From an uncultured Chitinophaga sp. (GTDB lineage Bacteria > Bacteroidota > Bacteroidia > Chitinophagales > LD1), in contig CAZBPG010000001.1 in the NCBI GenBank assembly GCA_964493695.1, positions 71,645 to 135,644 of the forward strand: 64,000 nt of DNA, written 5' to 3'. This document shows positions 15,733-53,685 of the stretch, in pieces. The notes under the pieces are model-generated. The model did no database searches. It had not been told where the DNA came from and saw only the letters and a program-made list of their open reading frames with translations. Made by a program: the position numbers and the translations under genes. Numbering within the stretch: the stretch's first letter is position 1; every line of letters begins with the position of its first letter.

Positions 15733-16128
15733 CTATTGTTTTATCTGCCCTTTAAAAAATGAATTACCCTGTGCGTTCAGCAGGTTCACATATTCTTTTC
15801 CGTCTTTCTGAAAGAGCACATAACCGGTGCTGTCGCCCAGGTAGTAGTTACCGGAGATAAACTCCCTTCCGTTGATGAGCCACATAATGTTACCCGACAG
15901 CGGCACGTTCACTTTCGGGGCAGTTTTGCTTTCGAAAAGATTGTTGAACAGCTTTACGTTTCTTCCGTCTAAACTCATGCTTCCGCCTTTGCCCTGATAC
16001 ATCACTATATCCATGCTTGTAGTAGAATCGCGCATGGTGAGGTAGGTTTTTGCGGGAAGCGGTTGCTGTGCTTTGCAAAAGGCAAAAAGCAAAAGGCAAA
16101 AGGCAAAAGTGAAATGCAGTTTCTTCAT
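15733..16128 (-). CDS. Small secreted protein of unknown function
   Basis: 131 aa with a signal peptide MKKLHFTFAFCLLLFAFCKA, whose h-region is encoded by the (CTTTTGC)n heptamer run. Confidence 0.5.
   Translation of the reverse strand: MKKLHFTFAFCLLLFAFCKAQQPLPAKTYLTMRDSTTSMDIVMYQGKGGSMSLDGRNVKLFNNLFESKTAPKVNVPLSGNIMWLINGREFISGNYYLGDSTGYVLFQKDGKEYVNLLNAQGNSFFKGQIKQ
16075..16109. repeat. Tandem heptamer (GCAAAAG)x5, equal to (CTTTTGC)n on the coding strand
   Basis: Read directly: gcaaaag gcaaaaa gcaaaag gcaaaag gcaaaag. It encodes FTFAFCLLLFAFC of the 15733-16128 signal peptide. Confidence 0.9.
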
Positions 16129-16220: not shown

Positions 16221-18527
16221 ATGCTGCGCTCCGTTATCCTACTTTCCTGTTTTTCTGTATTCATTTCCATAGCTACTTTAAGTGCACAAACCATGACAGC
16301 CACCCAAGCCGATACCAAAGCACGCGAACTGATTGCGCAAATGAGTTTGAAAGAGAAAGTGTACGAAATGCACGGACACGGCATGATTCGCTTTGGTATG
16401 TCTATTCTGTTTTCGAAAAAAATTAAACCGGTGCATGCCGGTGGCAATAAGCGGTTGGGAATTCCTTCCACTATTTTTTTGGATGGTCCGCGCGGGGTGA
16501 GTTTGCATAAAGGCGCTACTGCTTTTCCTACAACTATGGCGCGCGGTGCCAGTTGGGATATTGGTCTGGAAAAAAGAGTTGGTGAGGCTATTGCCGAAGA
16601 AATACGCGCACTGGGTGCCAACTACAGCGGTGCGGTTTGTATGAATTTGCTGCGGCACCCTGCTTGGGGACGCGCGCAGGAAACCTATGGCGAAGACCCG
16701 CACCATGTGGGTGAAATGGCTTCGGCTTTGGTGGATGGAATTCAGCAACACAACGTGCAGGCCTGCGCCAAACACTTTGCCGCCAACAGCATGGAGAACA
16801 ACCGGTTTGGCGGAAGCATGAATATGGATGAGCGCACGCTGCGCGAAGTGTATCTGCCGCATTTTAAAAAAGTGATTGAGCGCGGTGCCGCTTCGGTAAT
16901 GAGCGCTTACAACAAACTGAACGGTGGGTTTTGCGGGCACCACAAAATGTTGTTGACGGATATTCTGCGCAACGAGTGGGGATTTAAGGGTTACGTAACC
17001 AGCGACTGGATGAACGGTCTTTACGATGCGCAAAAAGGAATTGAAGCCGGAATGAATATTGAAATGCCCAGCGATAAAGTTTACTCGCTCAAGAAAGTGA
17101 AACAGCTTTTGAGCGATGGGAAAATAAAAGAGCAGCAGATTGATGATTTGATTTTGCCCATCATCCGCACCAAATTATTTTTTGTAGCGAAGAAAGATGT
17201 GCAGGAGTATCCGAAGAGTTTAGTGGGTTGTAAAGCGCACATTGATTTAGCGCGCGAAGTGGCGGAGAAGAGTGCGGTGCTGCTGAAGAACGAAAATTCA
17301 TTTCTGCCCTTAGACAAAAGCAAAGTAAAGCGCATTGCGGTTATCGGCTCGCTGGCTTCTGTAAAACAAACCGGTGACCACGGCAGCAGCCGTGTGTTTC
17401 CCAAATATGTGGTTTCTCCGCTGGATGGAATCAGTATTTACCTTACAGGCGAATGTCACCCTGAGCGGAGTCGAAGGGGGAAGGCGAGGAAAGGCTTCGA
17501 CTACGCTCAGCCTGACATTGCTGGTACAGTAGAAATCCTCACCGCACCGGTAGATGACATAGCAGCCATTAAAAACATCTGCACCGGTGCAGATGCCGTG
17601 ATTGTTGTTGCCGGTACTACTTACAAAGACGAAGGCGAGTTTATAGGCAACGGACAAATACGCGATAAGAATAACCCCGACAAAAAAGATTTTATTACCC
17701 GCACCGGTATACTTGCTGTGGGTGGCGACCGGAAGTATCTGCATCTGCATCAACCGGATATTGAGGTGATACATGCCGCGGCTTCGGTAAACAAAAATGT
17801 GGTGGTGAGTTTAGTGGCAGGCAGCGCGGTAACGGTGGAGGAATGGCACGAAGAAGTGCCCGCCATCATCGAAACGTTTTACAACGGCATGGAAGGCGGC
17901 ACCGCCCTTGCGCGTATTTTGTTTGGCGATGTAAACCCATCCGGTAAACTTCCCTTCACCGTTCCGAAACTCGAAAGCGATTTGCCTGCGTTTAACTCGT
18001 ACGATACGGCTGTTGATTATGGTTACTACCATGGCTACACGCTTTTCGATAAAGAGAAAAAAGAAGCGCGTTATCCTTTCGGCTTTGGTTTAAGCTATAC
18101 ACAGTTTGATATTTCTGATTTAAAAACGAATGTCTTCGCAGGGTCTCCGTCTCGGGACCCTGCGTTCGTGCAAAGCCACAGGGTCTTCGCAGAGCCGAAA
18201 GACCCTGTGGGGACATCCGAAACCTGCGAGGTTTCGGTTAGCGTAAAAAACACCGGTGCGCGTGCCGGTGCCGAAGTGGTGCAGGTATATGTTGGTTTCC
18301 CCGATTCGAAAATTGAGCAACCGGTGAAACTTCTCCGGGGCTTCAGCAAAGTTTTTCTTCAACCGGGCGAGGAGCGCAGGGTTGAGTTCAACATCAGCGC
18401 CAGCGATTTGGCCTCTTTCCACCCTGATACCCAAACCTGGCAAACCGCTAAAGGCACCTACCGGGTTAGCGTGGGCAATTCTTCGAGCAACGCAGAGATG
18501 CTTACTTCCACCTTCCAAATTAACTAA
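16221..18527 (+). CDS. Glycoside hydrolase family 3 beta-glucosidase (BglX-like), secreted
   Basis: 768 aa with a signal peptide. It has GH3 N-terminal (KHFAANSMENNR, SDW) and C-terminal domains plus an Fn3-like tail (GFGLSYTQF...VKNTGARAGAEVVQVY). It carries two in-frame repeat insertions. Confidence 0.9.
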   Translation: MLRSVILLSCFSVFISIATLSAQTMTATQADTKARELIAQMSLKEKVYEMHGHGMIRFGMSILFSKKIKPVHAGGNKRLGIPSTIFLDGPRGVSLHKGATAFPTTMARGASWDIGLEKRVGEAIAEEIRALGANYSGAVCMNLLRHPAWGRAQETYGEDPHHVGEMASALVDGIQQHNVQACAKHFAANSMENNRFGGSMNMDERTLREVYLPHFKKVIERGAASVMSAYNKLNGGFCGHHKMLLTDILRNEWGFKGYVTSDWMNGLYDAQKGIEAGMNIEMPSDKVYSLKKVKQLLSDGKIKEQQIDDLILPIIRTKLFFVAKKDVQEYPKSLVGCKAHIDLAREVAEKSAVLLKNENSFLPLDKSKVKRIAVIGSLASVKQTGDHGSSRVFPKYVVSPLDGISIYLTGECHPERSRRGKARKGFDYAQPDIAGTVEILTAPVDDIAAIKNICTGADAVIVVAGTTYKDEGEFIGNGQIRDKNNPDKKDFITRTGILAVGGDRKYLHLHQPDIEVIHAAASVNKNVVVSLVAGSAVTVEEWHEEVPAIIETFYNGMEGGTALARILFGDVNPSGKLPFTVPKLESDLPAFNSYDTAVDYGYYHGYTLFDKEKKEARYPFGFGLSYTQFDISDLKTNVFAGSPSRDPAFVQSHRVFAEPKDPVGTSETCEVSVSVKNTGARAGAEVVQVYVGFPDSKIEQPVKLLRGFSKVFLQPGEERRVEFNISASDLASFHPDTQTWQTAKGTYRVSVGNSSSNAEMLTSTFQIN
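17455..17516. repeat. 62-bp palindromic element inside the GH3 coding frame
   Basis: The 22-nt arms GTCACCCTGAGCGGAGTCGAAG / CTTCGACTACGCTCAGCCTGAC pair at 19 of 22 positions. Translated as CHPERSRRGKARKGFDYAQPD. Confidence 0.85.
18131..18237. repeat. Three consecutive hairpins (CGCAGGGTC-type) inside the GH3 coding frame
   Basis: The stems are 18137-45/18156-64, 18177-90/18196-210 and 18217-24/18230-37. Translated as VFAGSPSRDPAFVQSHRVFAEPKDPVGTSETCE. Confidence 0.8.
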
Positions 18528-22006: not shown

Positions 22007-23533
22007 ATGCGCAAAAAAATAAAGTCAGCTCTCATCTCCGTTTATTATAAAGATAAACTCGACCTCATTGTAAAAGAACTCGCTAAGCTCGGGGTGAAAA
22101 TTTACAGCACCGGTGGCACTCAAAGTTTTATTGAAGGGCTTGGTGTAAAAGTAACTGCGGTAGAAGACCTTACTTCTTATCCATCTATTTTAGGCGGGAG
22201 AGTAAAAACCCTTCACCCGAAAGTTTTCGGAGGCATTTTAGGAAGAAGAGATAACGCCAGCGACCAAAAAGAAATGGCGCAATACGAAATTCCTGAAATT
22301 GATTTGGTGATTGTTGACCTCTATCCGTTTGAAGAAACGGTGAAAGGCGGAGGAAGTGAAGAAGATATTATTGAGAAGATTGACATTGGCGGAATTTCGC
22401 TCATCCGTGCGGCAGCAAAAAACTTCAACGACACTATTATTGTTTCTACCCGCAACGATTACGAATCGCTTTTAGAATTACTGCAAACAAAAAATGGCGA
22501 AAGCGATTTAGAAGACCGTAAAAAGTTTGCCGCCAAAGCCTTCATGAACTCTTCGCATTACGATACGCTTATCTTTAATTACTTCAATAACGAATTCAAA
22601 TTCGAAGTTTTCAAAAGGAGCGAACTGAATGCAAAGGTGCTTCGCTATGGCGAGAACCCTCACCAACGCGGAGTGTTCTACGGCAATCTTGATGAGATTT
22701 TTGAAATACTAAACGGCAAAGAACTTTCTTACAACAATCTGGTAGATGTAGATGCTTCTATAAATCTCGTAGCTGAATTTTCTGAACCGACTATTGCCAT
22801 CATCAAACACACCAACAGCTGCGGGCTTGCTTCGCGCGAAACTATTGCGGAAGCCTACAAGGCCGCTTTTGCCTGCGATACTACTTCGGCATTTGGTGGT
22901 GTAATTGCCTCTAACCGCAAAATTGATTTGGCAACCGCCAACGAAATGAATTCCCTTTTCTTCGAAGTACTCACTGCACCCGGTTATGATGATGATGCGT
23001 TGGCCGTTTTAAAAAGTAAGAAGAACAGAATTATTATCAGACAACGGACAACGGACAACGGACAACAGAAAATACAGTTCAAAAATTTGCTGAATGGAGT
23101 ATTGACACAAGATGTTGATTCTAAAGCGGAAGGCAAAAGCGAATTCAAAGTAGCTACTGCAAAAGCCCCAGCCGCTACAGAAGTTTCTGATTTAGAGTTT
23201 GCCGTAATTGCCGTTAAGCATTTAAAGAGCAACGGTATTGCGCTCGTAAAAAACAAACAACTCATCGGCAGTAACTGCGGGCAAACATCGCGTGTAGATG
23301 CTTTGCAAAATGCAGTCCGCAAAGCAAAAGAGTTCGGTTTCGATTTAACCGGTGCCGTAATGGCAAGCGATGCCTTCTTCCCTTTTCCCGATTGCGTGCA
23401 GATTTCGCACGAAGCGGGAATAACCGCCATCGCGCAACCGGGTGGCAGTATCAAAGACCAGGACTCCATAGATGCCGCCAACAAAAACAACCAGGCCATG
23501 GTAATGACTGGTGTTAGGCACTTTAAGCACTAA
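22007..23533 (+). CDS. purH: Bifunctional AICAR transformylase / IMP cyclohydrolase
   Basis: 508 aa with an MGS-like N-terminal domain (ALISVYYKDKL...STGGT) and an AICARFT domain ending VMTGVRHFKH. Confidence 0.97.
   Translation: MRKKIKSALISVYYKDKLDLIVKELAKLGVKIYSTGGTQSFIEGLGVKVTAVEDLTSYPSILGGRVKTLHPKVFGGILGRRDNASDQKEMAQYEIPEIDLVIVDLYPFEETVKGGGSEEDIIEKIDIGGISLIRAAAKNFNDTIIVSTRNDYESLLELLQTKNGESDLEDRKKFAAKAFMNSSHYDTLIFNYFNNEFKFEVFKRSELNAKVLRYGENPHQRGVFYGNLDEIFEILNGKELSYNNLVDVDASINLVAEFSEPTIAIIKHTNSCGLASRETIAEAYKAAFACDTTSAFGGVIASNRKIDLATANEMNSLFFEVLTAPGYDDDALAVLKSKKNRIIIRQRTTDNGQQKIQFKNLLNGVLTQDVDSKAEGKSEFKVATAKAPAATEVSDLEFAVIAVKHLKSNGIALVKNKQLIGSNCGQTSRVDALQNAVRKAKEFGFDLTGAVMASDAFFPFPDCVQISHEAGITAIAQPGGSIKDQDSIDAANKNNQAMVMTGVRHFKH
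23038..23072. repeat. Tandem heptamer (CGGACAA)x4-5 inside purH
   Basis: cagacaa cggacaa cggacaa cggacaa cagaaaa, translated as RQRTTDNGQQK. Confidence 0.85.
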
Positions 23534-32230: not shown

Positions 32231-33352
32231 ATGGCAGGCATCTATATTCATATCCCTTTTTGTAAGCAGGCCTGCCATTATTGCAATTTCTATTTCAGCA
32301 CTTCGCTGGGCAATAAAGACAAATTCGTTCAGGCATTGCTGAAAGAAATTGGGTTGAGCAAAGATTACTTAGCGGGCGAAAAAATAGAAACCCTCTATTT
32401 GGGTGGAGGAACACCTTCGCAGTTAAGCATTCAAGATTTAAGGTTGATTACAGATAAACTTCACCTGTATTACGATTTAAGTCAACTGAAAGAATTTACA
32501 ATTGAAACCAATCCTGATGATTTGAAAGAGGAGAAAGGCATTAAAGGAATAGGAACGTTAGGAGTGGACCGTTTTTCCATCGGCATTCAATCTTTTTTTG
32601 ATGAAGATTTAAAATACATGAACCGCGCGCATAATTCCGATGAAGCACTTTCCTCGGTTAAAAGAGTGCAGGATGCCGGTTTTGAAAACATCACGATTGA
32701 TTTAATTTATGGAACTCCCACCATGAATGATGAGAAATGGAAGCAGAACCTTGCCACAGCCTTTTCATTGAACGTTCCGCATATTTCTTCTTACGCTTTA
32801 ACCGTTGAGTCAAAAACATCTTTAGAGAAGAAAATTGCAAAAGGAGAATCGAAACAGGTTGACGAAGAACAATCTGCAAGGCAATTCAAGATGCTGATGA
32901 ACGAAATGCGCATACATGGTTTTGAGCAGTATGAGATTTCAAATTTTGCGCGGAATGGGAAACATGCTGTCCATAATTCCAACTACTGGTTTGGTAAAAA
33001 GTATCTGGGGCTTGGCCCTTCGGCACATTCCTTTAACGGAGTTTCAAGGCGATGGAATGTTTCAAATAATCTGAACTATATCAACAGCATCAACGAAGGC
33101 AAAATTCTTTTTGAGGAAGAGGTGTTGACTGAAGCACAAAAAGTGAATGAGAAAATTATGACTTCACTTCGTACGCAATGGGGCTTAGATATTGCGGAAT
33201 GTGGAACGCGGAACGCGGAATTAATTCAAGAGGGCTCAAAAGAAATTGACCCCACACATTATACGCTTGAAAGCGGAGTTCTTAAATTGACTGACGAAGG
33301 AAAATTGTTTGCCGATTCTATTGCTGCTGCGCTTTTTGTCGAAGAGCAGTAA
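32231..33352 (+). CDS. hemW: Radical SAM heme chaperone HemW (oxygen-independent coproporphyrinogen oxidase-like)
   Basis: 373 aa with CxxxCxxC (CKQACHYC) at the N-terminus and a HemN_C-like tail. Confidence 0.9.
   Translation: MAGIYIHIPFCKQACHYCNFYFSTSLGNKDKFVQALLKEIGLSKDYLAGEKIETLYLGGGTPSQLSIQDLRLITDKLHLYYDLSQLKEFTIETNPDDLKEEKGIKGIGTLGVDRFSIGIQSFFDEDLKYMNRAHNSDEALSSVKRVQDAGFENITIDLIYGTPTMNDEKWKQNLATAFSLNVPHISSYALTVESKTSLEKKIAKGESKQVDEEQSARQFKMLMNEMRIHGFEQYEISNFARNGKHAVHNSNYWFGKKYLGLGPSAHSFNGVSRRWNVSNNLNYINSINEGKILFEEEVLTEAQKVNEKIMTSLRTQWGLDIAECGTRNAELIQEGSKEIDPTHYTLESGVLKLTDEGKLFADSIAAALFVEEQ
33191..33226. repeat. Tandem heptamer (GCGGAAY/GTGGAAC)x4 inside hemW
   Basis: attgcggaat gtggaac gcggaac gcggaat taat, translated as IAECGTRNAELI. 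Confidence 0.75.
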
Positions 33353-33982
33353 TTACTTCCATTCAAATGTTTTCAGCATTTGTTTTACATCGGCTTTTAC
33401 ATAATCAAGCACCGGTGCCATACTGTCGGCATTGGGTGAACTGTAAAAATAAAGTGCTCCGCGAATAAAATGACGATTGCTATCGGTTAGGAAAAACTGA
33501 ACATTACTGGCTGCGTCTCCGCCCAAATCGTAAAGTATCCCGCCAACACCATGTGCGTTATCAATTTTAATCTCGTCAATGTAGTTTGCTTTTTTGGTGT
33601 GCTTAAAAGCCATCTTGTGTGCGTCTTCCACTAAGTGCTCCAGCCTCATCGTATCATTAATGTCCTTGTAAGTAAGATTTACCACTCCGTTAAGCGATGG
33701 GAAGTAAACATTCAGCCAGCATTGGTCGCTTCTCAGTTTGTTTCCAAAATAGGTGGTATCGCGTGATACTTCCGTGTAAACGGGTTTCTCAAATTTAAAC
33801 GGACATTCCTTCGGGTCGTACAATTCATATTTTCTCTCCGGAAAAATTACCCGCGGATATGCCTTTTGTTTGGGAGTGTAATCACCATGACAAGAAGGAA
33901 GGATAACAGATAATAGACAACAGACAACAGACAAAATCCATTTCTGATTTCTGATTTCTGATTTCTGATTTCTAACTCTCAT
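33353..33982 (-). CDS. gldD: Gliding motility lipoprotein GldD
   Basis: 209 aa with a lipobox (LPSC). It shows conserved GldD blocks (YPRV.FPE..Y, LTYK, DAHKM.F.H..KA, FFLTDS..HF.RGALYFY..PN.DS..P) and lies immediately downstream of gldE. Confidence 0.8.
   Translation of the reverse strand: MRVRNQKSEIRNQKWILSVVCCLLSVILPSCHGDYTPKQKAYPRVIFPERKYELYDPKECPFKFEKPVYTEVSRDTTYFGNKLRSDQCWLNVYFPSLNGVVNLTYKDINDTMRLEHLVEDAHKMAFKHTKKANYIDEIKIDNAHGVGGILYDLGGDAASNVQFFLTDSNRHFIRGALYFYSSPNADSMAPVLDYVKADVKQMLKTFEWK
33902..33974. repeat. Two-armed heptamer element at the gldE/gldD junction
   Basis: On the plus strand, (ACAGAYA)x4 at 33902-33935 and (ATTTCTG)x5 at 33940-33974. The arms are about 5/7 complementary per unit. 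Confidence 0.9.
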
Positions 33983-35318
33983 TCGTAATTTTCACTTTTT
34001 CAATCCGGTTATTCAGTACCGATACAATGGTGAATTTATAGTTCTTCATTTTCAGTTCTTCTCCGTTCTTAGGAATTCGACCTGCAATTTCAAGTATCAA
34101 ACCGGCAAGCGATTCTGATTCTCCTTTCGTTTCTTCAAATGTAGCAACGTCTACTTCCATCAAACGGCAGGCATCGGCCAAAGGTGTTTTGCCATCAAAT
34201 AAAAAATTCTTGTCGTCAATTTTTTTGAAGCCGGTTTCAGTAGCCTCATCAAACTCATCCGTAATATCACCTACCACTTCTTCTACAATATCTTCAAGCG
34301 TTATAATTCCGCAAGTGCCCCCGTATTCATCAACTACTACGGCAAGATGTTTTCTGTTCTGCTGAATCTCACGCAGCAGGTCGTCAATCTTTTTTGTTTC
34401 CGGAACAAAAAACGGTTCGCGTATCATGTTCTGCCATCCGAACGCTTCATCCTGATTCAGATGTTCTATCAAATCTTTTATGTTGAGTACACCCACCACG
34501 TTATCAGGGTTTTCTTTGTAAACGGGATAACGCGAATAGCCATTCTCTTTCACAAAAGCCATCAATTCTTTAAAATTGAAATCATAGTCAATAGATACTA
34601 CATCGGTTCGCGGGCGCATCACCTGCTTCACCATAATGTTGCCGAAGTGCACAATCCCCTTCAGTAACTTGGCATCCTGTTTCGACTCTTTTTTCTCAAC
34701 GGTAATTTCAATCGCCTTGTTTATTTCTTCAATATCAATTTCTGCATTGTGCCTCTTTAATCTTTTTTCCAAAGATTGAGTGCCGCCAATCAGAATATAG
34801 TTTACCGGTTGCATTATTTTTACGAGCAGGTTGAAGAAGCCGCTCATAGCACGGGCAATTTTTACTTTGTTATGTGTAGCATAAACCTTCGGAGTGGCTT
34901 CGCCAAACAACACCAGGAAAAAAGTTACAATCAAAACGTTCCAAATAAACTCAATAGCGTAACCGTGCAGCACGAAGTTGCCGATAAGAAAATCCTGAAA
35001 GTTAAACATGCGCTTGGTTACGTAATAGGAGGTAACCACAACGCCAATATTCACCAGGTTGTTGCTGATAAGAATGGTGGATAGAAGATAGCGCGGGCTA
35101 TCGAGCAGTTTTCCAACACGGTTGTCTGCTGCGTCTTCGCTTTCGCGCAAGGCACCAACTTCCACATTGCTCAACGAGAAATACGCAATCTCACTGGCCG
35201 ACATGATAGCGGAACAGATAATTAAAACCAGAATGATAAGATTGGCGATAAAAACAGAAGCGGTAGGCGCGTTAACCAGCGACTGAAGAAAAATTTGCAA
35301 ACTGACGGAAGAATCCAT
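33972..35318 (-). CDS. gldE: Gliding motility protein GldE (CNNM/HlyC-type TM domain + CBS pair + CorC_HlyC)
   Basis: 448 aa with a DUF21 TM region, tandem CBS domains and a CorC C-terminal domain. The synteny ssb-gldE-gldD supports the call. Confidence 0.8.
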   Translation of the reverse strand: MDSSVSLQIFLQSLVNAPTASVFIANLIILVLIICSAIMSASEIAYFSLSNVEVGALRESEDAADNRVGKLLDSPRYLLSTILISNNLVNIGVVVTSYYVTKRMFNFQDFLIGNFVLHGYAIEFIWNVLIVTFFLVLFGEATPKVYATHNKVKIARAMSGFFNLLVKIMQPVNYILIGGTQSLEKRLKRHNAEIDIEEINKAIEITVEKKESKQDAKLLKGIVHFGNIMVKQVMRPRTDVVSIDYDFNFKELMAFVKENGYSRYPVYKENPDNVVGVLNIKDLIEHLNQDEAFGWQNMIREPFFVPETKKIDDLLREIQQNRKHLAVVVDEYGGTCGIITLEDIVEEVVGDITDEFDEATETGFKKIDDKNFLFDGKTPLADACRLMEVDVATFEETKGESESLAGLILEIAGRIPKNGEELKMKNYKFTIVSVLNNRIEKVKITNES

Positions 35319-35331
35319 ATTGGCTGGTGGT

Positions 35332-35394
35332 GAATAGCAAGTGGCGAATGATAAGCAGTAATTTACTGCTCGCTACCCGCCACTTGCTATTTGC
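35332..35394. repeat. Two-armed heptamer palindrome between ssb and gldE (possible terminator/attenuator)
   Basis: GAATAGCAAGTGGCG...AGCAGTAA pairs with TTACTGCT...CGCCACTTGCTATT, giving 15-bp and 8-bp stems separated by one mismatched heptamer. Confidence 0.8.
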
Positions 35395-35400
35395 TGAATA

Positions 35401-35958: not shown

Positions 35959-37017
35959 CTAAATTTTCAAACCGACACTGAGTAAATACAAGTACAAGGT
36001 TTTGGGAAAGGCGTATTGAGAAATCAATTTTAGTTTTACTTTCTGCGTATTTGCCAATGAAAACGATTTAAAATCCTTTAGCTCAACTTCAATAAACCTA
36101 AAATGAATTTTGCGGTGCGAAAGCATTTGAGATATTTCCCTTGAATGCGATTGGATAGAAAAACGTTTTGTGCCGAGAAGCTTTGCCACCGCCTCAGCAA
36201 AACCCTTCTTCAAAGGTTTTGTTGTTTCAATCATCGGCAGTTCGTAGAGGTTTTTCCAGATGTCCTTGCCCGTTCGCTTTCGAATCAGAATTTCTTTATC
36301 GTTTTTTATTAAGAGGTAATTAAAATACCGGTTGGTGATTTTGGTTCGCTTCCCCCTGTAAGGAAGCTGCTCAATCAGCTCATGATTTTTTGCCACACAA
36401 ATTTTTCTGAACGGACATTCCTCACACTTCGGGTTTTTAGGTAGGCAAACTACTCCGCCAAAATCCATGATAGCCTGATTATAAAGAGCGGGATTCTTTT
36501 CATCAATTAAATCTTGGGCCAGTTGCGCAAATCTCTTTTTGCCTTCGGTGTTGTCAAAAGCTGTTTCAATTCCGAAAACACGTGCCAGTACACGGATAAC
36601 ATTGCCATCTACCACCGCTTTGTTTTCACCAAAGGCGAATGATGCAATAGCCGCAGCGGTGTAATCACCTACGCCCTTCAGCTTTTTTAGTTCATCGAAC
36701 GTTTCCGGAAACTTCCCTTTCCGGTTATCCTGAATGTTTTTGGCGGTTTCGTGCAAGTTACGTGCACGCGAATAGTAGCCCAGGCCCTGCCACAGTTTCA
36801 TCACATCATCTTCTTTGGCTTTAGCCAAATGCTGTATCGTGGGATACTTCTGTTTAAAGCGAAGAAAATACGGCAGCCCCTGCTCTACCCGCGTTTGCTG
36901 CAGAATAATTTCACTCAGCCAGATGTAATAAGGATTCTTTTCTCCCTTCCACGGCATGTGCCGGGTGTTTTCTTCTTTATGCCATTTTAGTAAAACCGAA
37001 GCGAATTTGTTACTCAT
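35959..37017 (-). CDS. mutY: A/G-specific adenine DNA glycosylase
   Basis: HhH-GPD domain, a 4Fe-4S Cys cluster (C..PKNPKCEECPFRKIC) and a NUDIX-like C-terminal domain. The start is moved to the Met at MSNKF. Confidence 0.9.
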   Translation of the reverse strand: MSNKFASVLLKWHKEENTRHMPWKGEKNPYYIWLSEIILQQTRVEQGLPYFLRFKQKYPTIQHLAKAKEDDVMKLWQGLGYYSRARNLHETAKNIQDNRKGKFPETFDELKKLKGVGDYTAAAIASFAFGENKAVVDGNVIRVLARVFGIETAFDNTEGKKRFAQLAQDLIDEKNPALYNQAIMDFGGVVCLPKNPKCEECPFRKICVAKNHELIEQLPYRGKRTKITNRYFNYLLIKNDKEILIRKRTGKDIWKNLYELPMIETTKPLKKGFAEAVAKLLGTKRFSIQSHSREISQMLSHRKIHFRFIEVELKDFKSFSLANTQKVKLKLISQYAFPKTLYLYLLSVGLKI

Positions 37018-37139
37018 TATATATATGACAAAGAAGAAAGTTTTTGTCAATTCAAACCATCAATGAATTGTCAGCGCCAACTTTCCCCCGGCCTTGAACT
37101 ATTGGTTCAAACCAAAAGAACAACGTTAAAAGTTAAATC

Positions 37140-37690: not shown

Positions 37691-37751
37691 TTCTAAGTTT
37701 GCGGCCCTTGTATTCAAATCCAAAACCACACTTCTAAAATCTAAAATCAGA

Positions 37752-38804
37752 ATGATTAACGTTCCTCTCCTCAAACAAATCTGCGAAACCCCCGGGGTTC
37801 CCGGCCACGAACAAAAAGTGCGCGAACTTATTCAACGCGAACTCAAAAATATTGCTGATGACATCTATACCGATAATATGGGTAACCTGATAGCGGTAAA
37901 AAAAGGAAAGAGCAGCACCAAAAAAGTAATGGCCGCTGCGCACATGGACGAAATCGGCTTTATCGTTCATCATATTGACGAAAACGGTTTTCTCCGCTTT
38001 CATCCCCTTGGCGGCTTCGACCCTAAAACTTTAACGGCACAGCGCGTAGTAGTTCACGGAAAAAAAGATGTGGTTGGTGTAATGGGCACAAAACCTATTC
38101 ACTTAATGACAGCAGAAGAGCGTGGAAAGCCGCTTCACCTCACCGATTATTTTATTGACCTCGGCATGAGTCGCAAAGAAGTAGTGAAGATTGTGGAGGT
38201 GGGAAATGTAGTAACCCGCGAGCGCGAATTGATTGAAATGGGCGATTGCGTGAACTGCAAAAGTATCGACAACCGGGTAGCGGTTTTTGTTCTGATTGAA
38301 ACACTCCGCGAACTCAAAGGAAAAAATATCCCTTACGACTTCTACGGCATCTTTACCGTGCAGGAAGAAGTGGGTATCCGTGGCGCACAGGTTGCCGCCC
38401 ACCACATTGGTGCCGAATTCAGTTTTTGTATTGATACAACAATAGCTTTTGATACACCCGGTGCAAAACCCGAAGAAATGGTTACTAAACTGGGGGATGG
38501 TGTAGCGATAAAAATTATGGATTCGTCCGCCATCTGCGATTACCGCATGGTGAAGTTTATGAAAGAGCTGGCCGACAAAAACAAAATTAAATGGCAACCG
38601 GAGTTGCTCCCTGCCGGTGGAACCGACACAGCGGGCATGCAGCGCATGGCACCGAACGGAACTATTGCCGGTGCGGTATCTATTCCAACCCGCCACATTC
38701 ATTCCGTAATTGAAATGGCAAACAAAAAAGACATTAAAGGCAACATTGATTTGCTGAAACTTTGCTTGAGCAATCTGGATAAATACGATTGGAGCTTTAA
38801 GTAA
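37752..38804 (+). CDS. M42-family glutamyl aminopeptidase / endoglucanase-like peptidase
   Basis: 350 aa. It has the motifs ETPGVPGHE, AHMDEIGF, DNRVA, VQEEVGIRGA. Confidence 0.9.
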   Translation: MINVPLLKQICETPGVPGHEQKVRELIQRELKNIADDIYTDNMGNLIAVKKGKSSTKKVMAAAHMDEIGFIVHHIDENGFLRFHPLGGFDPKTLTAQRVVVHGKKDVVGVMGTKPIHLMTAEERGKPLHLTDYFIDLGMSRKEVVKIVEVGNVVTRERELIEMGDCVNCKSIDNRVAVFVLIETLRELKGKNIPYDFYGIFTVQEEVGIRGAQVAAHHIGAEFSFCIDTTIAFDTPGAKPEEMVTKLGDGVAIKIMDSSAICDYRMVKFMKELADKNKIKWQPELLPAGGTDTAGMQRMAPNGTIAGAVSIPTRHIHSVIEMANKKDIKGNIDLLKLCLSNLDKYDWSFK

Positions 38805-39766: not shown

Positions 39767-41407
39767 ATGAAGATTGCCCTTGCCCAGTTAAATTATCACG
39801 TAGGAAATTTTGAGGCGAACACGCAGAAAATAATTGCTGCTATCCGCCATGCCGAAAAGCAAAATGCAGAGCTGGTAGTCTTCAGCGAGCTTTGCATCTG
39901 CGGTTATCCTTCCCGCGATTTTTTAGAGTTTGATGATTTCATTAACCAGTGCACAAATGCTTTGAGGGAAATCGCAAAGCACACAGGTAAAGTTGCTGTG
40001 CTCGTTGGTTGCCCTCGTAAAAACCCGGTGAAAGAGGGCAAGGATTTGTTCAACGCTGCATTCTTTCTGTATGAAGGCGAAGTAAAACACATCACCGATA
40101 AAACATTGCTGCCGGTTTACGATGTGTTTGATGAATACCGGTATTTTGAACCGAACAGGAAATTTGAAGTAGTCAGCTTCAAAGGCAAAAAATTAGCCCT
40201 TACCATTTGCGAAGATATCTGGAACGTAGGCAACGACAATCCGCTCTATACCATCTGCCCGATGGATGAATTGATAAAGCAGTCACCGGATATGATTATT
40301 AATCTTTCTGCTTCGCCTTTCAGTTATGTTCAACACGAAGAGCGGATGAAAGTAATCCGCGCCAATGTAGCCCGGTATAAAATTCCGATGGCCTACGTAA
40401 ACCAGGTAGGCGCACAAACCGAATTAATTTTTGACGGAGGAAGTGTAGTGGTGAATGAGAAGGGAGAAGTAGTTGAGCAATTGAAGTTTTTTGAAGAAGA
40501 AATCAGGATTGCGGATTGCGGATTTTCGATTTCGGATTTAGAATTCGAATGCACCAATCCGCAATCCGCAATTTCGCTGATTCACTCCGGATTAGTTCTC
40601 GGCATCCGCGATTACTTCGCCAAGCTCGGTTTTAAAAAAGCAATCCTCGGTTTAAGCGGGGGAATAGATTCTGCTTTGGTTCTCTGTTTGGCAGCCGAAG
40701 CATTAGGAAAAGAGAATGTCATGTCGCTCCTTCTTCCATCCGGTTTTTCATCTGACCATTCTATAGCCGATTCAAAACAACTTTGCGAAAATCTGGGAAC
40801 GAAATACGAAACAGTCCCTATCGAAAATAATTTTCAGGCTTTTATACAAACGCTGAATCCGTTTTTCAAAGACCTTCCGTTCAATGTAGCGGAAGAAAAT
40901 CTACAGGCGCGCGTGCGCGGGGTTTTGCTCATGGCTTTCAGCAATAAATTCGGGTACATTTTGCTCAACACTACCAACAAGAGCGAAGCAGCTGTTGGCT
41001 ACGGAACTTTGTATGGCGATATGTGCGGAGGGTTGGCTGTGTTGGGCGATGTTTACAAAACACAGGTGTATGAACTCGCCAATTACATTAACCGGAACGG
41101 TGAAGTGATTCCCCGGAATATTATTTCAAAGCCCCCGTCCGCGGAGCTTCGCCCCAACCAAAAAGATTCCGATTCGTTGCCTGAGTATGATGTGTTGGAC
41201 AAGGTGCTCTACCAATACATCGAAAAACGCCAGGGCCCCAAAGAACTGACCGCAATGGGTTTTGAAAAAAAATTAGTTGACCGGGTGTTGAAAATGGTTA
41301 ACGGCAGCGAATGGAAACGTTTTCAAACACCGCCCATTCTTCGCGTTTCTCCAAAGGCATTCGGCATGGGGCGCAGAATGAACATTGAAGGGAAGTATCT
41401 CGGTTAA
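39767..41407 (+). CDS. nadE: Glutamine-dependent NAD+ synthetase
   Basis: 546 aa with an N-terminal nitrilase/CN-hydrolase domain and a C-terminal synthetase domain with an SGGIDS P-loop. The linker carries an in-frame palindromic repeat. Confidence 0.95.
   Translation: MKIALAQLNYHVGNFEANTQKIIAAIRHAEKQNAELVVFSELCICGYPSRDFLEFDDFINQCTNALREIAKHTGKVAVLVGCPRKNPVKEGKDLFNAAFFLYEGEVKHITDKTLLPVYDVFDEYRYFEPNRKFEVVSFKGKKLALTICEDIWNVGNDNPLYTICPMDELIKQSPDMIINLSASPFSYVQHEERMKVIRANVARYKIPMAYVNQVGAQTELIFDGGSVVVNEKGEVVEQLKFFEEEIRIADCGFSISDLEFECTNPQSAISLIHSGLVLGIRDYFAKLGFKKAILGLSGGIDSALVLCLAAEALGKENVMSLLLPSGFSSDHSIADSKQLCENLGTKYETVPIENNFQAFIQTLNPFFKDLPFNVAEENLQARVRGVLLMAFSNKFGYILLNTTNKSEAAVGYGTLYGDMCGGLAVLGDVYKTQVYELANYINRNGEVIPRNIISKPPSAELRPNQKDSDSLPEYDVLDKVLYQYIEKRQGPKELTAMGFEKKLVDRVLKMVNGSEWKRFQTPPILRVSPKAFGMGRRMNIEGKYLG
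40506..40576. repeat. Two-armed heptamer palindrome in-frame inside nadE
   Basis: (GGATTNC)x5, then GAATTC, then (AATCCGC)x2-3. A perfect 17-bp stem forms between attgcggattgcggatt (40508-24) and aatccgcaatccgcaat (40556-72). Confidence 0.9.
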
Positions 41408-48247: not shown

Positions 48248-48324
48248 GAGAAGGGACGAAGGACGAGGGCGAGGGAAGAGGATACGGCTGCTACCCTCGT
48301 CACCCGTCCCTCGCTCTCGTCCCT
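48248..48324. repeat. Two-armed heptamer palindrome (GAGGGAC-type / CCCTCGY-type) in a divergent intergenic region
   Basis: gagaagggacgaaggacgagggcgagggaagagg ... ccctcgtcacccgtccctcgctctcgtccct. The arms are imperfectly complementary. Confidence 0.85.
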
Positions 48325-49073: not shown

Positions 49074-51043
49074 TGAGAGAACGACCATCGACCATTGACC
49101 ATCGGCAAGGCAAACAAGTAAATTTTGCACGCCCGGCAAGGGCGGGTGTTATTTTTATATGGTTAATCGTCTTTGGTCAGTCGTCCTTTGCTCAGCCTAA
49201 AGAAACTCCGCTCATTACGTTCCGCCAAAAACTGCTCCGCGAAAAGCATAACGATAACGTGGAGAAAATAGATTCGTTTGCTAAGCTTCACTTAATGATT
49301 GCCGGCAACATCTACCAAACCGAAAAACATGCGGCTTACGCGTATGATAAAGCCACCGGTAAATACGATTACAAAAGCGAGTTAAAATACATCCAGCCGA
49401 TACTCAACCTGGGCGATGTTACCATTGCCAATCTCAAAACCTCTTTCAGCAACAGCACAAAAAACATGTTCTCCTCGCCCGATGAATTCGGGCTGGCACT
49501 GAAATATTCCGGAGTAAATGTGGCGCTCCATGCCAACGTGCATACTGCCAACATCAGCAAGGCCAATTTAAAACGCACACACGAAGTGCTTGATGGATAT
49601 GATGTTTATCACACCGGTGCTTTCATGGATAACATTCAGCGCAACGGCAACTATCCGCTTATCGTCAACAAAAAGGGTTTTCGGATTGCCGTGCTCAATT
49701 ACACCAACCTCACTTCGCGCCCTTCCGTTTCGCGCGATTTTGTCATCAACGAAATTGACAAAACCACTATTGATAAGGATATGCGCCTCACACACGCCTA
49801 CAAACCGGATTTTACCATCGTTTATTTCGACTGGGGCGCGAACATGCAGGACATTCCCTCCTATGCTCAACAGGAATTGGCGCAATACGTTTTTCAAGCT
49901 GGAGCCAACTTAGTGGTGGGCACACACCCCAATACCCCGATGCGCATTGATATGATGAACTACAGTTATAATGGCGAACTGCGCGAGGGCATCATTGCTT
50001 ATTCTCTCGGAAACCTCATCAGCAGCAACGAAGAAATACGCAACCGCAACGGCTATGTGATTGATATGGAGATTCAGAAAAACAATTTTACCACCGAAAC
50101 CCGTGTAAGCGATTGGGGGGTGATACCCGTTTATAATTATTACGATACTACTTCCGTACGCGGAAAAACCAGCCTGTTCGTTGTGCCTTGCGCTAACGTA
50201 GAAAGCGGAGATATTTTGCCCAACCTCGCATACATTGAAAAGCGAAGGGCAGTGAATAGTGCGTATGAAGTGCGAAAACTGCTGGGCAACGTAGCCGATG
50301 AAATTCAATACAACCTGAACGAACTGATTGTAAACAATGTGGAGGAAAGCATAAATATTACCAATGCTTCGCTTAACAACAAATACAATCCAAAGCGCGA
50401 AGAAGAAGTAAGCCCAAGCGATGCACCCGAACTGCCGGTAGCAACTACCGGCTCTGATAATCCCCCTTCACTGGCATTGCTTTACGAACAACCTGCAGAA
50501 ACAAAAACCACCACACCGGTTGTTACAAAAGCGGAAAAGAAAAGCGAAAAAGAAACCTCGTATTTAACTCAACGGAAAAAAGCAGAGGCGGTTATGGAAG
50601 CGCCAATAATTCCCAAAGAGCCGGTTGCTGAAATTTCAACGGAAAAAGTTTCGGAAAGCGATAACCCAAAAGAGGAAGTGTTAAACCCGAAAGCAAGCAG
50701 TGTGGAAGTTTCTTCGCATGAGGCAACAAAAATTTCCACCGGTGCAAATGGCGGCCTCACAGGAAATGTAGAAATGACCAAGGCAAAAAATTTGGAGTTA
50801 CAGGTTGATACGTTTTACCGCATTCAGTTCTATGCGCTTAAAACTTTTATCCCGCTGGATACTAATTACTATACCCACCTGAAAGGTTACGAGGTGCGGG
50901 TAGAAGAGGGTTTATATAAATACATGCTGGGCATGTACAGAAGTTTTAAGGAGTGTGAAACATACTGGAAAAGCCAGATACAGCCGCGCTACAAACAAAG
51001 CTTTATAGTTAAATTTATCGATGGAAAAAGAGTGGTAAGATGA
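49073..51043 (+). CDS. CapA-family (PGA_cap metallophosphatase-like) protein fused to a C-terminal SPOR domain
   Basis: About 656 aa. The CapA-like region spans roughly residues 60-400, followed by a low-complexity Pro/Glu/Lys linker and a SPOR-like end (FYRIQFYALK...YKYMLGMYRSFKECE). Confidence 0.7.
   Translation: MRERPSTIDHRQGKQVNFARPARAGVIFIWLIVFGQSSFAQPKETPLITFRQKLLREKHNDNVEKIDSFAKLHLMIAGNIYQTEKHAAYAYDKATGKYDYKSELKYIQPILNLGDVTIANLKTSFSNSTKNMFSSPDEFGLALKYSGVNVALHANVHTANISKANLKRTHEVLDGYDVYHTGAFMDNIQRNGNYPLIVNKKGFRIAVLNYTNLTSRPSVSRDFVINEIDKTTIDKDMRLTHAYKPDFTIVYFDWGANMQDIPSYAQQELAQYVFQAGANLVVGTHPNTPMRIDMMNYSYNGELREGIIAYSLGNLISSNEEIRNRNGYVIDMEIQKNNFTTETRVSDWGVIPVYNYYDTTSVRGKTSLFVVPCANVESGDILPNLAYIEKRRAVNSAYEVRKLLGNVADEIQYNLNELIVNNVEESINITNASLNNKYNPKREEEVSPSDAPELPVATTGSDNPPSLALLYEQPAETKTTTPVVTKAEKKSEKETSYLTQRKKAEAVMEAPIIPKEPVAEISTEKVSESDNPKEEVLNPKASSVEVSSHEATKISTGANGGLTGNVEMTKAKNLELQVDTFYRIQFYALKTFIPLDTNYYTHLKGYEVRVEEGLYKYMLGMYRSFKECETYWKSQIQPRYKQSFIVKFIDGKRVVR
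49082..49186. repeat. Two-armed heptamer element at the start of the CapA-SPOR gene
   Basis: (CGACCAT)x3 at 49082-49104. The second arm atggtta atcgtct ttggtca gtcgtcc at 49159-49186 is about 5-6/7 complementary per unit. Confidence 0.7.
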
Positions 51044-51756: not shown

Positions 51757-53081
51757 AAAAACAAGTTGGCAGTTGGCAGTTAGCGGTTGGCAGAGTAATC
51801 GCCCTTGTTGTGTGTCTTTTGCTGCTCGATAGTCAACTCTCAATAGGCCAGGCATCTTCTCCATATTCCCGGTTTGGCCTGGGCTATATTCACTCTCCGG
51901 TTTTTTCGGGCAATAAAGCCATGGGCGAGGTGGCAGCCCCTTACGCCAGCGGAGCAAACATCAATTTCGCCAATCCGGCTTCGTATGCTTCGCTTACGCG
52001 CACTACTATCGAAATTGGAATGAATGTAGAAGGCGCAAAAATCTATGCGCGGGATTCCAACTACACCGCTACACAGGCAGGCATTAACCATTTTGCGCTG
52101 GCTTTTGTGCCTGCGCCTAAGCGAAATAACTATGCTATCAGCATCGGCTTGCTTCCTTACTCGCACATCAACTATACCTTCATTCAGAATTTTAATGACT
52201 CTGCACTTGGCCCGTTTCGTCAGATATACGGTGGCAAGGGTTCTTTGTACCAGGTGTATGCAGGCGGTGCTTATAAAGTGAAAGGTTTTTCTATCGGTGC
52301 AAATCTCGGATTCCTCTTCGGTAAGTTAGATTATCAAAAGACCATCACTTTCCCTGATTCGCTTTATGCAAACACCACGCGTAACATCACCAGCATGAAT
52401 GTGAAAAGTTTTGTTTACACGGTTGGCGTACAATATCAGCGGCTGATTTTTCACAGCAGTAACGACCCCGATGCGCGGACAGATATCTTCATGACTCTGG
52501 GGGCTTATGGTTCGGGCGGAATGAAAATGCAGGCAAAACTTTCCAACTATTGGGACCGGTACACTATTGACCCTCTGCTGGGAGTTCTGGCAGATACGGT
52601 AGCGGCTAATTTCAATCAAAAAGCAAGCGTGAATCTTCCATTTAACATCGGGGCCGGTGTAATGTTCGGCAACGAACGCTACTGGATGCTGGGAACCGAC
52701 TTCAAGTTTATGAACTGGGAAAAGTATTCTTCTCCGTTGAACAACGGCAATTTGAGCAATAGCTGGAGAATTTCGTTTGGCGGACAGATAACACCGAAGT
52801 TTGATGAAGTAGACAAGAAAAAGTATTTAAGCAAAGTGCAGTACCGTGCCGGAGTTTATTATGGCAAAAGCGAAGTTAATTTCAATGGAAACCAGTTGAG
52901 TGAAGTGGGCGGAACTATAGGATTAGGATTTCCGTTTAAATCAGTGGCCCGCTTAAACCTTACCGGTGATTTTGGTTCGCGTGGCGGAAGCGATAAAACA
53001 ACTATCCGCGAAACCTATTATCGCATTACCTTCGGCTTTGTGTTAAACGATATCTGGTTTATCAAACGCAAATTCGATTAA
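51753..53081 (+). CDS. Outer membrane beta-barrel protein of unknown function (conserved coaX-lptC neighbourhood)
   Basis: 442 aa with a signal-like N-terminus, Gly/aromatic-rich beta-strand periodicity and a C-terminal KRKFD. Confidence 0.5.
   Translation: MKKQVGSWQLAVGRVIALVVCLLLLDSQLSIGQASSPYSRFGLGYIHSPVFSGNKAMGEVAAPYASGANINFANPASYASLTRTTIEIGMNVEGAKIYARDSNYTATQAGINHFALAFVPAPKRNNYAISIGLLPYSHINYTFIQNFNDSALGPFRQIYGGKGSLYQVYAGGAYKVKGFSIGANLGFLFGKLDYQKTITFPDSLYANTTRNITSMNVKSFVYTVGVQYQRLIFHSSNDPDARTDIFMTLGAYGSGGMKMQAKLSNYWDRYTIDPLLGVLADTVAANFNQKASVNLPFNIGAGVMFGNERYWMLGTDFKFMNWEKYSSPLNNGNLSNSWRISFGGQITPKFDEVDKKKYLSKVQYRAGVYYGKSEVNFNGNQLSEVGGTIGLGFPFKSVARLNLTGDFGSRGGSDKTTIRETYYRITFGFVLNDIWFIKRKFD
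51765..51792. repeat. Tandem heptamer (GTTGGCA)x4 at the coaX / OMP gene junction
   Basis: gttggca gttggca gttagcg gttggca, translated as VGSWQLAVGR. Confidence 0.9.
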
Positions 53082-53082
53082 G

Positions 53083-53685
53083 GTGAAAGCCCAAAGCTCA
53101 AAGCCCAAAGCCCAAATAAAACCCGTTTCGCGTTTTTTATTTTGCTTTTGCCTTTTGCCTTTTGCGCTTTGCCTTTTACTCTCCTCCTGCAAAAACTCTC
53201 TTGAAGAAGCCAGGCTGATTGTATCGCGCGCTAACGTGAATATTGAAAAGGGCAAAGATGTAGAAATCAATTATTCGGATAATGGGGTGGTGCGCATTAA
53301 AGCATCGGGCCCTACGGCTACCCGGTTTAATTCCGAAAAACCTTACCTCGAATTTTCGGACGGCATAAAGATTCTCTTTTACAATGCTGCTCACCAAATA
53401 GAAAGCACGCTCACCGCAAAACATGCTACTGCGGTAGAAAACAGCCATTCCATGACGGCCCGCGACAGTGTGGTGGTGGTAAACGACAAAGGCGATGTAT
53501 TGAACACGGATGAGTTGATTTGGGATGAGGAGAAAAAAATAATTTACAGCAACTCGTTTGTAAAAATCTCTACTGACGATGAAATTATTTACGGTAACGG
53601 CATGATTGCCAACGAAAATTTTTCCGACTACACCATTAAGCACATTACCGGAAAGATTAAAGTGAAAACAAGTGAGCTGGAGTAG
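53083..53685 (+). CDS. lptC: LptC-like LPS export periplasmic protein (lipoprotein form)
   Basis: 200 aa with a lipobox (LSSC) and OstA/LptC-like beta-jellyroll repeats (LEFSDGIKILFYN...DELIWDEEKKIIYSNSFVKI). Confidence 0.65.
   Translation: MKAQSSKPKAQIKPVSRFLFCFCLLPFALCLLLSSCKNSLEEARLIVSRANVNIEKGKDVEINYSDNGVVRIKASGPTATRFNSEKPYLEFSDGIKILFYNAAHQIESTLTAKHATAVENSHSMTARDSVVVVNDKGDVLNTDELIWDEEKKIIYSNSFVKISTDDEIIYGNGMIANENFSDYTIKHITGKIKVKTSELE
53086..53177. repeat. Two-armed heptamer element at the OMP / lptC-like junction
   Basis: (AAAGCCC)x4 at 53086-53120 and (TTTTGCC)x5 at 53140-53177. Confidence 0.9.

Follow-up and report, generated by a model that had tools for sequence, protein, structure and literature searches.

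Heptanucleotide simple sequence repeats (SSRs) are known from several bacterial lineages: they include the STRR and GGGGA(C/T)T repeats of cyanobacteria, the GGGAATC repeats of Xanthomonas and the TAACTGA repeats of Beggiatoaceae (PMC4679880; PMC4692102), the last of which occur also in five Bacteroidetes (PMC4679880). A polymerase footprint has been suggested as the origin of the period of 7 (Mrazek 2007, as cited in PMC4679880). The present study deals with a pair of heptamer arrays located at the junction between the genes gldE and gldD in a 64,000-nucleotide stretch of DNA from an uncultured Chitinophaga sp. of the Chitinophagales (assembly GCA_964493695.1, contig CAZBPG010000001.1, positions 71,645 to 135,644), which is referred to below as the window. 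Lying between the conserved ATG of gldD and a non-repeat lipobox, these two arrays are probably translated as the leader of the GldD lipoprotein, and the sequence comparisons presented here make them a likely member of a lineage-wide class.

Like the heptamer SSRs described previously, the arrays of this lineage show an enrichment of period 7, occur in 2–6 copies, are often located near gene starts, vary among close relatives and sometimes form inverted pairs (PMC4679880; PMC4692102). The known families have one or a few dominant units, are 89–93% intergenic and occur less often than expected in coding sequence (PMC4692102), whereas many units are found here and about half of the arrays are located within the first 45 codons, in translated sequence. 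The excess specific to period 7 that characterizes STRR and long simple sequence repeats of period 7 (LSSR-7) is present in this lineage, without the predominance of a dominant unit in intergenic DNA.

A non-triplet tandem repeat in the leader-coding 5' region, translated in the leader, is also known in the opa genes of Neisseria, where the unit is the pentamer CTCTT and a single long hypervariable tract switches expression through its copy number at a rate of about 1e-3 per generation (PMC3960869). The gldD gene differs from opa in carrying two different heptamer arrays of no more than five copies, which are identical in two strains, and in having no OFF allele in 33 loci; it thus shares with contingency loci of the opa type a non-triplet unit in the 5' region, and shows neither copy-number polymorphism nor out-of-frame alleles. 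The arrays described here also differ from opa in being carried by housekeeping genes of the envelope in a lineage that is free-living. The Rickettsia palindromic elements (RPEs) are palindromic repeats likewise tolerated at permissive sites within ORFs (open reading frames) and translated (PMC10969869), as are the NadE linker and the PurH loop described below. RPEs, however, form dispersed families of about 150 bp with a conserved sequence and add length to their hosts, whereas the present elements have only the 7-nt periodicity in common, leave the length of the enzymes checked unchanged and cluster in leaders. With periodicity rather than sequence in common, they belong neither to the RPEs nor to elements of the MITE type (miniature inverted-repeat transposable elements).

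Signal peptides are constrained by their composition more than by their sequence. The gldD leader has the same parts as the canonical signal peptides processed by signal peptidase II (SPase II), namely a basic n-region, a hydrophobic core of 12–14 residues and a lipobox-like tetrad with an invariant Cys (Cys31); it departs from them in the length of its n-region (14 residues), in the 7-residue repeats making up its n- and h-regions and in the Pro at position -2 of this LPSC tetrad. No report of heptanucleotide repeats translated as signal peptides was found by a literature search. The gldD element is best grouped with known kinds, leader repeats of the opa type and heptamer SSRs, and does not constitute a new category.

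The gldE/gldD Junction

The gldD ORF (33353..33982, minus strand) encodes 209 amino acids, opens with ATG AGA GTT and gives a protein with the N-terminus MRVRNQKSEIRNQKWILSVVCCLLSVILPSCHGDY. It was assigned to GldD (TIGR03512/PF25593) on the basis of the equivalog score (TIGR03512, 208.8 bits versus a cutoff of 120) and of its place immediately 3' of gldE, an arrangement which is also found in 33 related loci. Residues 23–209 correspond to profile positions 2–182 of 182, and the match begins within the T-rich array. PF25593 is present in all the GldD homologs found, which come from metagenome-assembled genomes (MAGs) of uncultured Chitinophagales.

The two genes overlap by 11 nt. When read on the minus strand from 33982 to 33890, the junction consists of ATG AGA GTT, AGAAATC x4.9, GGATT, TTGTCTG TTGTCTG TTGTCTA TTATCTG TT and ATC CTT CCT TCT TGT. 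It therefore comprises an A-rich array (arm 1), a short spacer, a T-rich array (arm 2) made of two perfect units followed by TTGTCTA and TTATCTG, and the codons of the lipobox (Table 1). The original prediction, made from the letters of this sequence, had given the units and copy numbers of both arrays and the coordinates of the element correctly, as the sequence and Tandem Repeats Finder (TRF) show, and had rightly placed the start of gldD inside the end of gldE, in agreement with the ORF list. Its peptide contained one RNQKSEI unit (7 residues, 21 nt) too many: the leader is actually MRVRNQKSEIRNQKWILSVVCCLLSVILPSC, with the Cys at residue 31.

In the gldD leader, the n-region MRVRNQKSEIRNQKWIL is positively charged (net charge +4), and the h-region WILSVVCCLLSVIL is of a length within the range of about 7–22 residues expected of such a region directly preceding the lipobox. 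The 12 residues ending at position -2 (SVVCCLLSVILP) have an average Kyte-Doolittle hydropathy (KD) of 2.52, which equals the median of the array-built leaders and is higher than that of the non-periodic ones. Among the GldD leaders with a 7-aa periodicity, the hydrophobic core has a median KD of 2.52 and the net charge of the n-region is at least +1 in all cases (19/19); the corresponding values in the non-periodic leaders are 2.32 and 84%. Array-built GldD leaders therefore preserve the physics of a signal peptide at least as well as non-periodic ones. The Leu at -3 and the Ser at -1 of the LPSC fit the pattern [LVI][ASTVI][GAS]C, expected with the Cys at positions 15–35, whereas the Pro at -2 fails a pattern of the PROSITE type; among 105 relatives the tetrad is LSSC in 59 cases and LPSC in 7. 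Cleavage by SPase II and lipidation presumably take place at Cys31.

The gldE-gldD neighborhood as a whole is array-prone in this clade. In L003, L005 and L006, three of the related loci analyzed, an array of AATTCTTC x2.6 with period 8 is located 10 nt 3' of the gldD stop (L003:9690-9709, L005:10667-10686, L006:10637-10656), and heptamer arrays also occur at or just 5' of the gldE start.

Start of Translation of gldD

Since the 80 orthologous loci were retrieved via motifs lying deep in the mature GldD, the phase of the junction in these loci is unbiased. The ATG overlapping gldE is surrounded by a conserved context (AAAGTGAAAATTACGAATGA), and in all the loci having this overlapping ATG (33/33), its distance to the Cys codon is a multiple of 3 and contains no stop codon. 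The ATG-to-Cys lengths amount to 57–81 nt in most of the array-free loci (the outliers being L054 with 90 nt and L017 with 198 nt) and to 66–150 nt in the array-bearing ones, and the 33 in-phase loci span about 12 distinct array architectures. If the phase were free, the probability of this outcome would be about 1e-5 to 1e-6. The same ATG is present in array-free relatives with ordinary lipoprotein leaders of 20–27 aa, such as MKHRRFFSVWCALCSVILSSC. In addition, the NCBI-derived protein P0263, which comes from an NCBI MAG, is identical to the 209-aa ORF of the window, which means that an independent annotation uses the same ATG.

The array-bearing relatives have GAAGTCC, CAAAGTT, AGTTGGC, GACACAA, GAACCCN, ATGACAG or AATTGAC as units of the first arm and TTGTCTA, TTGCCTG, TTCTTTG or TATGTTC as units of the second. 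The alignment with orthologs proposed in the original prediction, which asked whether their leaders were free of repeats, gave a mixed answer: some relatives are indeed repeat-free, others carry different arrays, and the ATG is common to both. The claim that the repeats serve as the GldD lipoprotein signal peptide is supported by the TIGR03512 match, the conserved in-phase ATG, the physics of the leader and P0263, and every comparison computed points to translation of the arrays from the gldE-overlapping ATG. The avoidance of stop codons in the arrays was rejected as a test of translation: it is circular, because arrays bearing stop codons cannot be classed as lying inside ORFs.

The absence of any alternative start, also stated in the original prediction, did not strictly hold, as an in-frame TTG is present inside arm 2 (Table 1). 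A leader initiated at this TTG would be MSVVCCLLSVILPSC, which contains neither Lys nor Arg, and the position of the TTG is not conserved in the relatives.

Composition Rule and Turnover of the Leaders

A heptamer array gives a single 7-residue peptide repeat, circularly permuted, in all three frames. With 7 and 3 being coprime, every base of the unit falls exactly once on the second position of a codon, so that the character of the peptide follows from the composition of the unit whatever the frame. The unit AGAAATC, with its four A's, gives RNQKSEI, which is polar and basic, while TTGTCTG, with its four T's, gives the hydrophobic LSVVCCL. As this character is independent of the frame, selection acts on nothing but the total length modulo 3.

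Within clusters of 90% identity, every full-length member has a mature GldD of exactly 179 aa, while leader lengths lie between about 20 and 66 aa and the arrays differ or are absent. The median identity between leaders is 0.38 in GldD pairs in which the mature proteins are at least 95% identical. The LptC homologs repeat this pattern: they are conserved from the lipobox onward and have hypervariable leaders which are often 7-aa-periodic. Leader expansion of another kind, giving a 66-aa GldD leader, was observed in L017 (5' of the Cys at 7549) and in the P0038 cluster, where it involves a G-rich palindromic segment CCCCCTCTGGAGGGGGTGTAGGGGGAGGAGAGCCCC, translated as SPSGGGVGGGEPL; the cluster-mates of P0038, the mature proteins of which are at least 90% identical, have 24-aa leaders.

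The changes leading from one leader to another can be followed when the window is aligned with L003 and L005; both arms are then seen to be orthologous and in register. Arm 1 corresponds there to (CGAAGTC)n, and the same two of the seven positions are changed in every copy of AGAAATC versus CGAAGTC. On the basis of this alignment, the identical two-position change in all the copies is best described as concerted evolution. The 8-mer array of L003 is an in-place expansion of a sequence which is single-copy in L005. The turnover of the leaders thus looks like the ordinary birth, homogenization and loss of SSRs, running fast where only composition and phase are selected.

We propose the following model. 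The A-rich (AGAAATC)n array would supply the basic, polar n-region and the T-rich (TTGTCTG)n array the hydrophobic h-region, and the LPSC would then serve as the site of SPase II cleavage and lipidation at Cys31. The period-7 arrays of this Chitinophagales clade would arise in place by slippage and be homogenized by concerted evolution. They would persist where the sequence is nearly free but the composition matters, that is, in leaders and in a few loops and linkers, selection keeping only those alleles in which the reading frame and the physics of the signal peptide are intact. Both the mechanism of slippage and the lack of a regulatory role are inferred.

Period-7 Arrays in the Window and in Related Loci

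With a threshold of at least 2.5 copies, 15 period-7 arrays were detected in the window versus 0.4 per Markov shuffle, and no other period was enriched. They are mostly located at the 5' ends of ORFs, often in the form of an A-rich array followed by a T/G/C-rich one. Their hosts include LptC, a BamG-family protein, an EnvC-like M23 peptidase, a PGA_cap protein, a TauE-family ORF, a PI-PLC-like lipoprotein and a small secreted protein (Table 1). The gldD element, which the original prediction had implicitly treated as unique, is therefore one instance of a class found throughout the lineage.

Altogether, the window and the 80 related loci contain 83 arrays, a sample biased toward N-termini by the presence of gldD in every locus: 38 of them are located within the first 45 codons (46%, where 12% were expected), 24 are intergenic (29%), 20 are internal (24%) and only one falls within the last 45 codons. 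Since this bias inflates the N-terminal share, the 15 ORFs other than gldD that carry N-terminal arrays are given separately; nearly all of them have the character of a signal peptide or a membrane anchor. About 30 different sense-strand units occur among the N-terminal arrays. The arrays cluster in the closest relatives (L001-L010), and the distant ones mostly lack them.

Table 1. Coordinates of the gldE/gldD junction and of the other array-bearing features of the window.
Feature	Coordinates	Strand	Remarks
gldE	33972..35318	-	TIGR03520, 493 bits versus cutoff 376; 3' end carries gldD start
gldD start codon ATG	33980..33982	-	Within last codons of gldE; 8 nt before gldE stop; conserved in 33 related loci
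gldE stop codon TAG	33972..33974	-	ORF list and sequence; overlaps first bases of arm 1
Arm 1, (AGAAATC)x4.9	33940..33973	-	TRF period 7, 100% matches, score 68; reads RNQKSEIRNQK, basic/polar n-region
Spacer GGATT between arms, 5 nt	33935..33939	-	Sequence; 27 (L005) to 60 (L003) nt more in these relatives
Arm 2, TTGTCTG TTGTCTG TTGTCTA TTATCTG TT, x4.3	33905..33934	-	TRF period 7, 86% matches, score 46; reads LSVVCCLLSV, hydrophobic h-region
In-frame TTG, sole alternative start between ATG and Cys	33932..33934	-	42 nt before Cys codon, inside arm 2
Lipobox codons L28-P29-S30-C31, non-repeat	33890..33901	-	Cys invariant in GldD alignment A1
Rest of mature GldD, residues 32-209, and stop codon	33353..33889	-	TIGR03512 match; mature Cys31-Lys209 = 179 aa
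PI-PLC-like protein, lipoprotein leader, (GTTTGCC)x2.6	13123..13140	-	
131-aa secreted protein, (CTTTTGC)x5	16075..16109	-	h-region FAFCLLLFAFC
PurH loop RQRTTDNGQ, perfect (GACAACG)x3.9	23040..23066	+	In ORF 22007..23533, conserved enzyme domain
NAD+ synthase (NadE) interdomain linker, inverted heptamer-array hairpin	40506..40572	+	In ORF 39767..41407; z = -6.4
TauE-family ORF 5' end, strong inverted pair of G-rich and C-rich heptamer arrays	48252..48324	-	z = -5
PGA_cap-domain protein leader, (CGACCAT)x3.3, central GC hairpin, complementary array	49082..49195	+	
BamG-family leader, (AGTTGGC)x4.3	51764..51793	+	AGTTGGC also in gldD leaders of L004, L008, L013
LptC leader MKAQSSKPKAQIKPVSRFLFCFCLLPFALCLLLSSC, (AAAGCCC)x4.4 ... 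(TTTTGCC)x5.6	53086..53177	+	Hairpin z = -3; homologue leaders hypervariable, 7-aa-periodic
EnvC-like M23 peptidase leader, (AAAAGTT)x5 ... (TCTTGTG)x3.3	61532..61609	+	TRF

Two of these arrays are located inside enzymes. In NadE, the element lies between the nitrilase and synthetase domains and consists of a near-perfect GGATTGC x2 ... GCAATCC x2 with an RNA fold of -39.4 kcal/mol; the length of the protein shows no net change versus PDB 5kha. In PurH, the net insertion versus PDB 4ehi is nil, and the motif of the loop (QTTDNGQRTT) reappears in the leaders of LptC and GldD from other genomes (P0123, P0244). The idea that the arrays are net insertions in enzymes was therefore rejected, both copies being length-neutral in comparison with the solved homologs.

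A weak period-7 pattern (GCGGAAC x3.9, 85% matches, 33194-33220, plus strand), which reads AECGTRNAE, was also detected in the HemW-like ORF 32231..33352. This pattern was rejected as a recent element, since AECGTRNAE is conserved in the orthologs and no clear difference in length was observed (there is one 2-aa gap, in L004); it may be either an array that became fixed long ago or a periodicity due to chance.

The start codon of the LptC ORF (53083-53685, plus strand) is GTG, a position at which a Met is given in the NCBI-derived record P0295. In the LptC of this clade (the window and homologs P0121-P0240), the lipobox Cys is conserved, LLSSC being followed by K/N-NSLEEAKLIVSRANVNIEKG; LptC therefore looks like a lipoprotein in this clade, unlike the usual LptC, which is anchored by an N-terminal transmembrane segment. 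In the EnvC-like ORF (61527..62819), the consensus AAAAGTT of the array at 61532-61567 (plus strand) would put an in-frame TAA in the third copy, where the actual sequence is AAAGTCA (CAA). This substitution may be a sign of selection for a translatable array, although the case is anecdotal.

Repeats of other kinds occur in two intergenic regions of the window. The first (18545-18846, plus strand), which follows ORF 16221..18527, consists of about 5–6 tandem units of about 42 nt and also shows a 126-nt super-repeat (TRF score 348); each unit holds a small GATACCGGAATTCCGCTAT-like palindrome bounded by ACAGGTCTG, and no match was found in Rfam. The second is an unusually long region of about 700 nt (37051-37751, plus strand) separating mutY (35959..37050, minus strand) from ORF 37752..38804 (plus strand). 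It contains an AT-rich block with TATAAGCAATGTATTTTTTA-like repeats of about 21 nt (37276-37362), a C/A-rich stretch with repeated GGAACC motifs and, 3 nt 5' of the ATG at 37752, a (TCTAAAA)x2.3 heptamer array.

Evaluation of Other Explanations

Four observations weigh against the view that the gldD element is simply a pair of tolerated arrays translated as a lipoprotein leader. The Pro at -2 makes the LPSC fail a regular expression of the PROSITE PS51257 type, which a Ser in its place would pass. An in-frame TTG is present 3' of arm 1. The leader-coding arrays of the window number about 11 versus 2 or fewer intergenic ones, a density exceeding simple tolerance, so that some targeting of leaders or some benefit of the arrays may be involved. 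Lastly, 11 of the 19 sister elements are specific inverted repeats, for which pure slippage alone does not account.

The last two of these observations bear on the idea that leader-coding regions are the favored target of an active mechanism (quasi-palindrome conversion from a template, gene conversion between leaders or a heptamer-generating activity) which would continually rebuild signal peptides from two-arm (A-rich)n/(T-rich)n modules. Since a polar-coding array becomes hydrophobic-coding when reverse-complemented, a palindromic two-arm module would be a ready n-region plus h-region in either orientation. The leader-dense arrays of the window, the many specific inverted repeats and the near-identical pairs of units shared across genes and genomes are all relevant here, and tolerance alone does not predict either the frequent inverted pairs or the leader-over-intergenic density. 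We nevertheless regard such a process as unlikely. If it does exist, it would provide a general route by which export signals are made and exchanged de novo.

The arrays might also form a contingency locus, in which a change of one unit (+/-1, 7 nt) would shift the frame and toggle GldD, and hence gliding and type IX secretion, as the CTCTT repeat does in Neisseria opa. The unit, whose length cannot be divided by 3, is located in the 5' part of the ORF (codons 4–27); slippage is evidently active, in view of the concerted evolution and in-place expansion; the opa precedent is itself a leader-peptide repeat, and the enrichment of SSRs at N-termini has been linked to phase variation in the literature. 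Out-of-frame alleles, however, number 0 in the 33 unbiased loci, there are just 4.9 copies, and arrays are also carried by housekeeping genes expected to be indispensable (lptC, the BamG-family gene, purH and nadE), in which switching would be harmful. The comparison of repeat numbers between strains, which the original prediction had suggested, showed no polymorphism: in the independent strain L081 (97% aa identity), both arrays are identical base for base, although nearby codons differ. No further array alleles were found in two exact-pattern scans of metagenome contigs or by looking up the window protein in assemblies. Phase variation at this locus is therefore very improbable.

We attach an equally small probability to an embedded regulatory hairpin, the arms of which, located right behind the start codon, would pair with each other in the mRNA or the DNA. 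Such pairing would enforce coupling by tying gldD translation to ribosomes that terminate at gldE, or would stabilize or attenuate the transcript, the translation of the arms being secondary. Translational regulation by heptamer repeats close to the start codon has been proposed by MacGregor (2015), and the gldD element begins exactly at the gldE stop, within the coupling zone. Strong, arm-specific inverted repeats also exist among the sister elements, those of NadE, the TauE-family ORF and LptC having the z scores given in Table 1, and 11 of the 19 elements rank in the top ~11% versus cross-pairings. The gldD copy itself folds no better than shuffled sequences (z = -0.63 in the sense and -0.39 in the antisense orientation), the complementarity of its arms is not specific (rank 0.33), and the strong hairpins of the sister elements are equally stable on both strands, with no sign of G-U pairs specific to the sense RNA. 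The gldD element had no Rfam hit at E <= 1, and no terminator-like site was found in 33300-35500. A structured regulatory RNA or an intrinsic terminator at gldD was rejected on these grounds.

The recurrence of similar units in different genes could be due to a mobile or convertible cassette, an (A-rich)n...(TTGTCTG)n module spreading between leaders by gene conversion or a transposition-like process. The unit of arm 2 also builds the h-regions of gldD in L003 and L007 and of lptC in L082, and the lptC leader of L082 (L082:430-545; ENA ERZ1505411), which reads ATG (AATTCAG)x4 ... TTATCTG TTGTCTG TTGTCTG TTGTCTA TCGTCTG, contains the pair (AGAATTC)x4 ... (TTGTCTG/A)x4, almost the same units as gldD of the window. 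AGTTGGC is shared between the BamG-family leader of the window and the gldD leaders listed in Table 1, the peptide RQRTTDNGQ is common to PurH and to some leaders of LptC and GldD, and leaders can differ completely in pairs with a mature identity of at least 95%. Shared boundaries, target duplications and a conserved core were not seen, however, and elsewhere in the window only loose matches to the unit pattern of either gldD array were found. Moreover, the window, L003 and L005, when aligned, display gradual change in place, with concerted substitutions and local expansion, and the recurrence of a few T-rich units may be explained by the fact that few stop-free heptamers are hydrophobic in all three phases. 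We therefore give little credence to a cassette of this kind.

Least credible of all is the reading in which arm 1 is an untranslated intercistronic spacer and translation starts at the TTG 42 nt before the Cys codon. The ATG frame would then be open simply because a heptamer array lacking stop codons can be read through in any of the three frames, so that an ORF running through such an array proves nothing alone. This reading was rejected by the phase test over 33 loci, with leader lengths of 57–198 nt, and the ATG keeps its position in relatives devoid of arrays, in which no other start is plausible. The TTG is a side effect of the TTGTCTG unit and occupies no conserved position, and the leader starting from it would lack any basic residue.

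Implications

Taken alone, the gldD case would be a curiosity; the wider interest lies in the fact that fast-changing heptamer arrays appear to encode the leaders of core envelope proteins. The export signals of GldD, LptC, the BamG-family protein and the EnvC-like peptidase seem to be written in 7-nt repeats and replaced wholesale while the mature proteins remain more than 95% identical, which would make this lineage an extreme case of the constraint on composition over sequence. The coprimality of 7 and 3 offers a simple, testable reason why heptamers may be unusually harmless in leaders. The lineage-specific heptamer phenomenon would thus be extended to the Chitinophagales, and from intergenic into coding DNA.

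In such genomes, programs for gene calling and signal-peptide prediction should be prepared for leaders that are long and repetitive, as well as for ORFs at operon junctions that are open in all frames, and the leader-coding arrays would make sensitive strain markers. The lineage may also be looked upon as a natural experiment on what the Sec pathway and SPase II minimally require of leader peptides.

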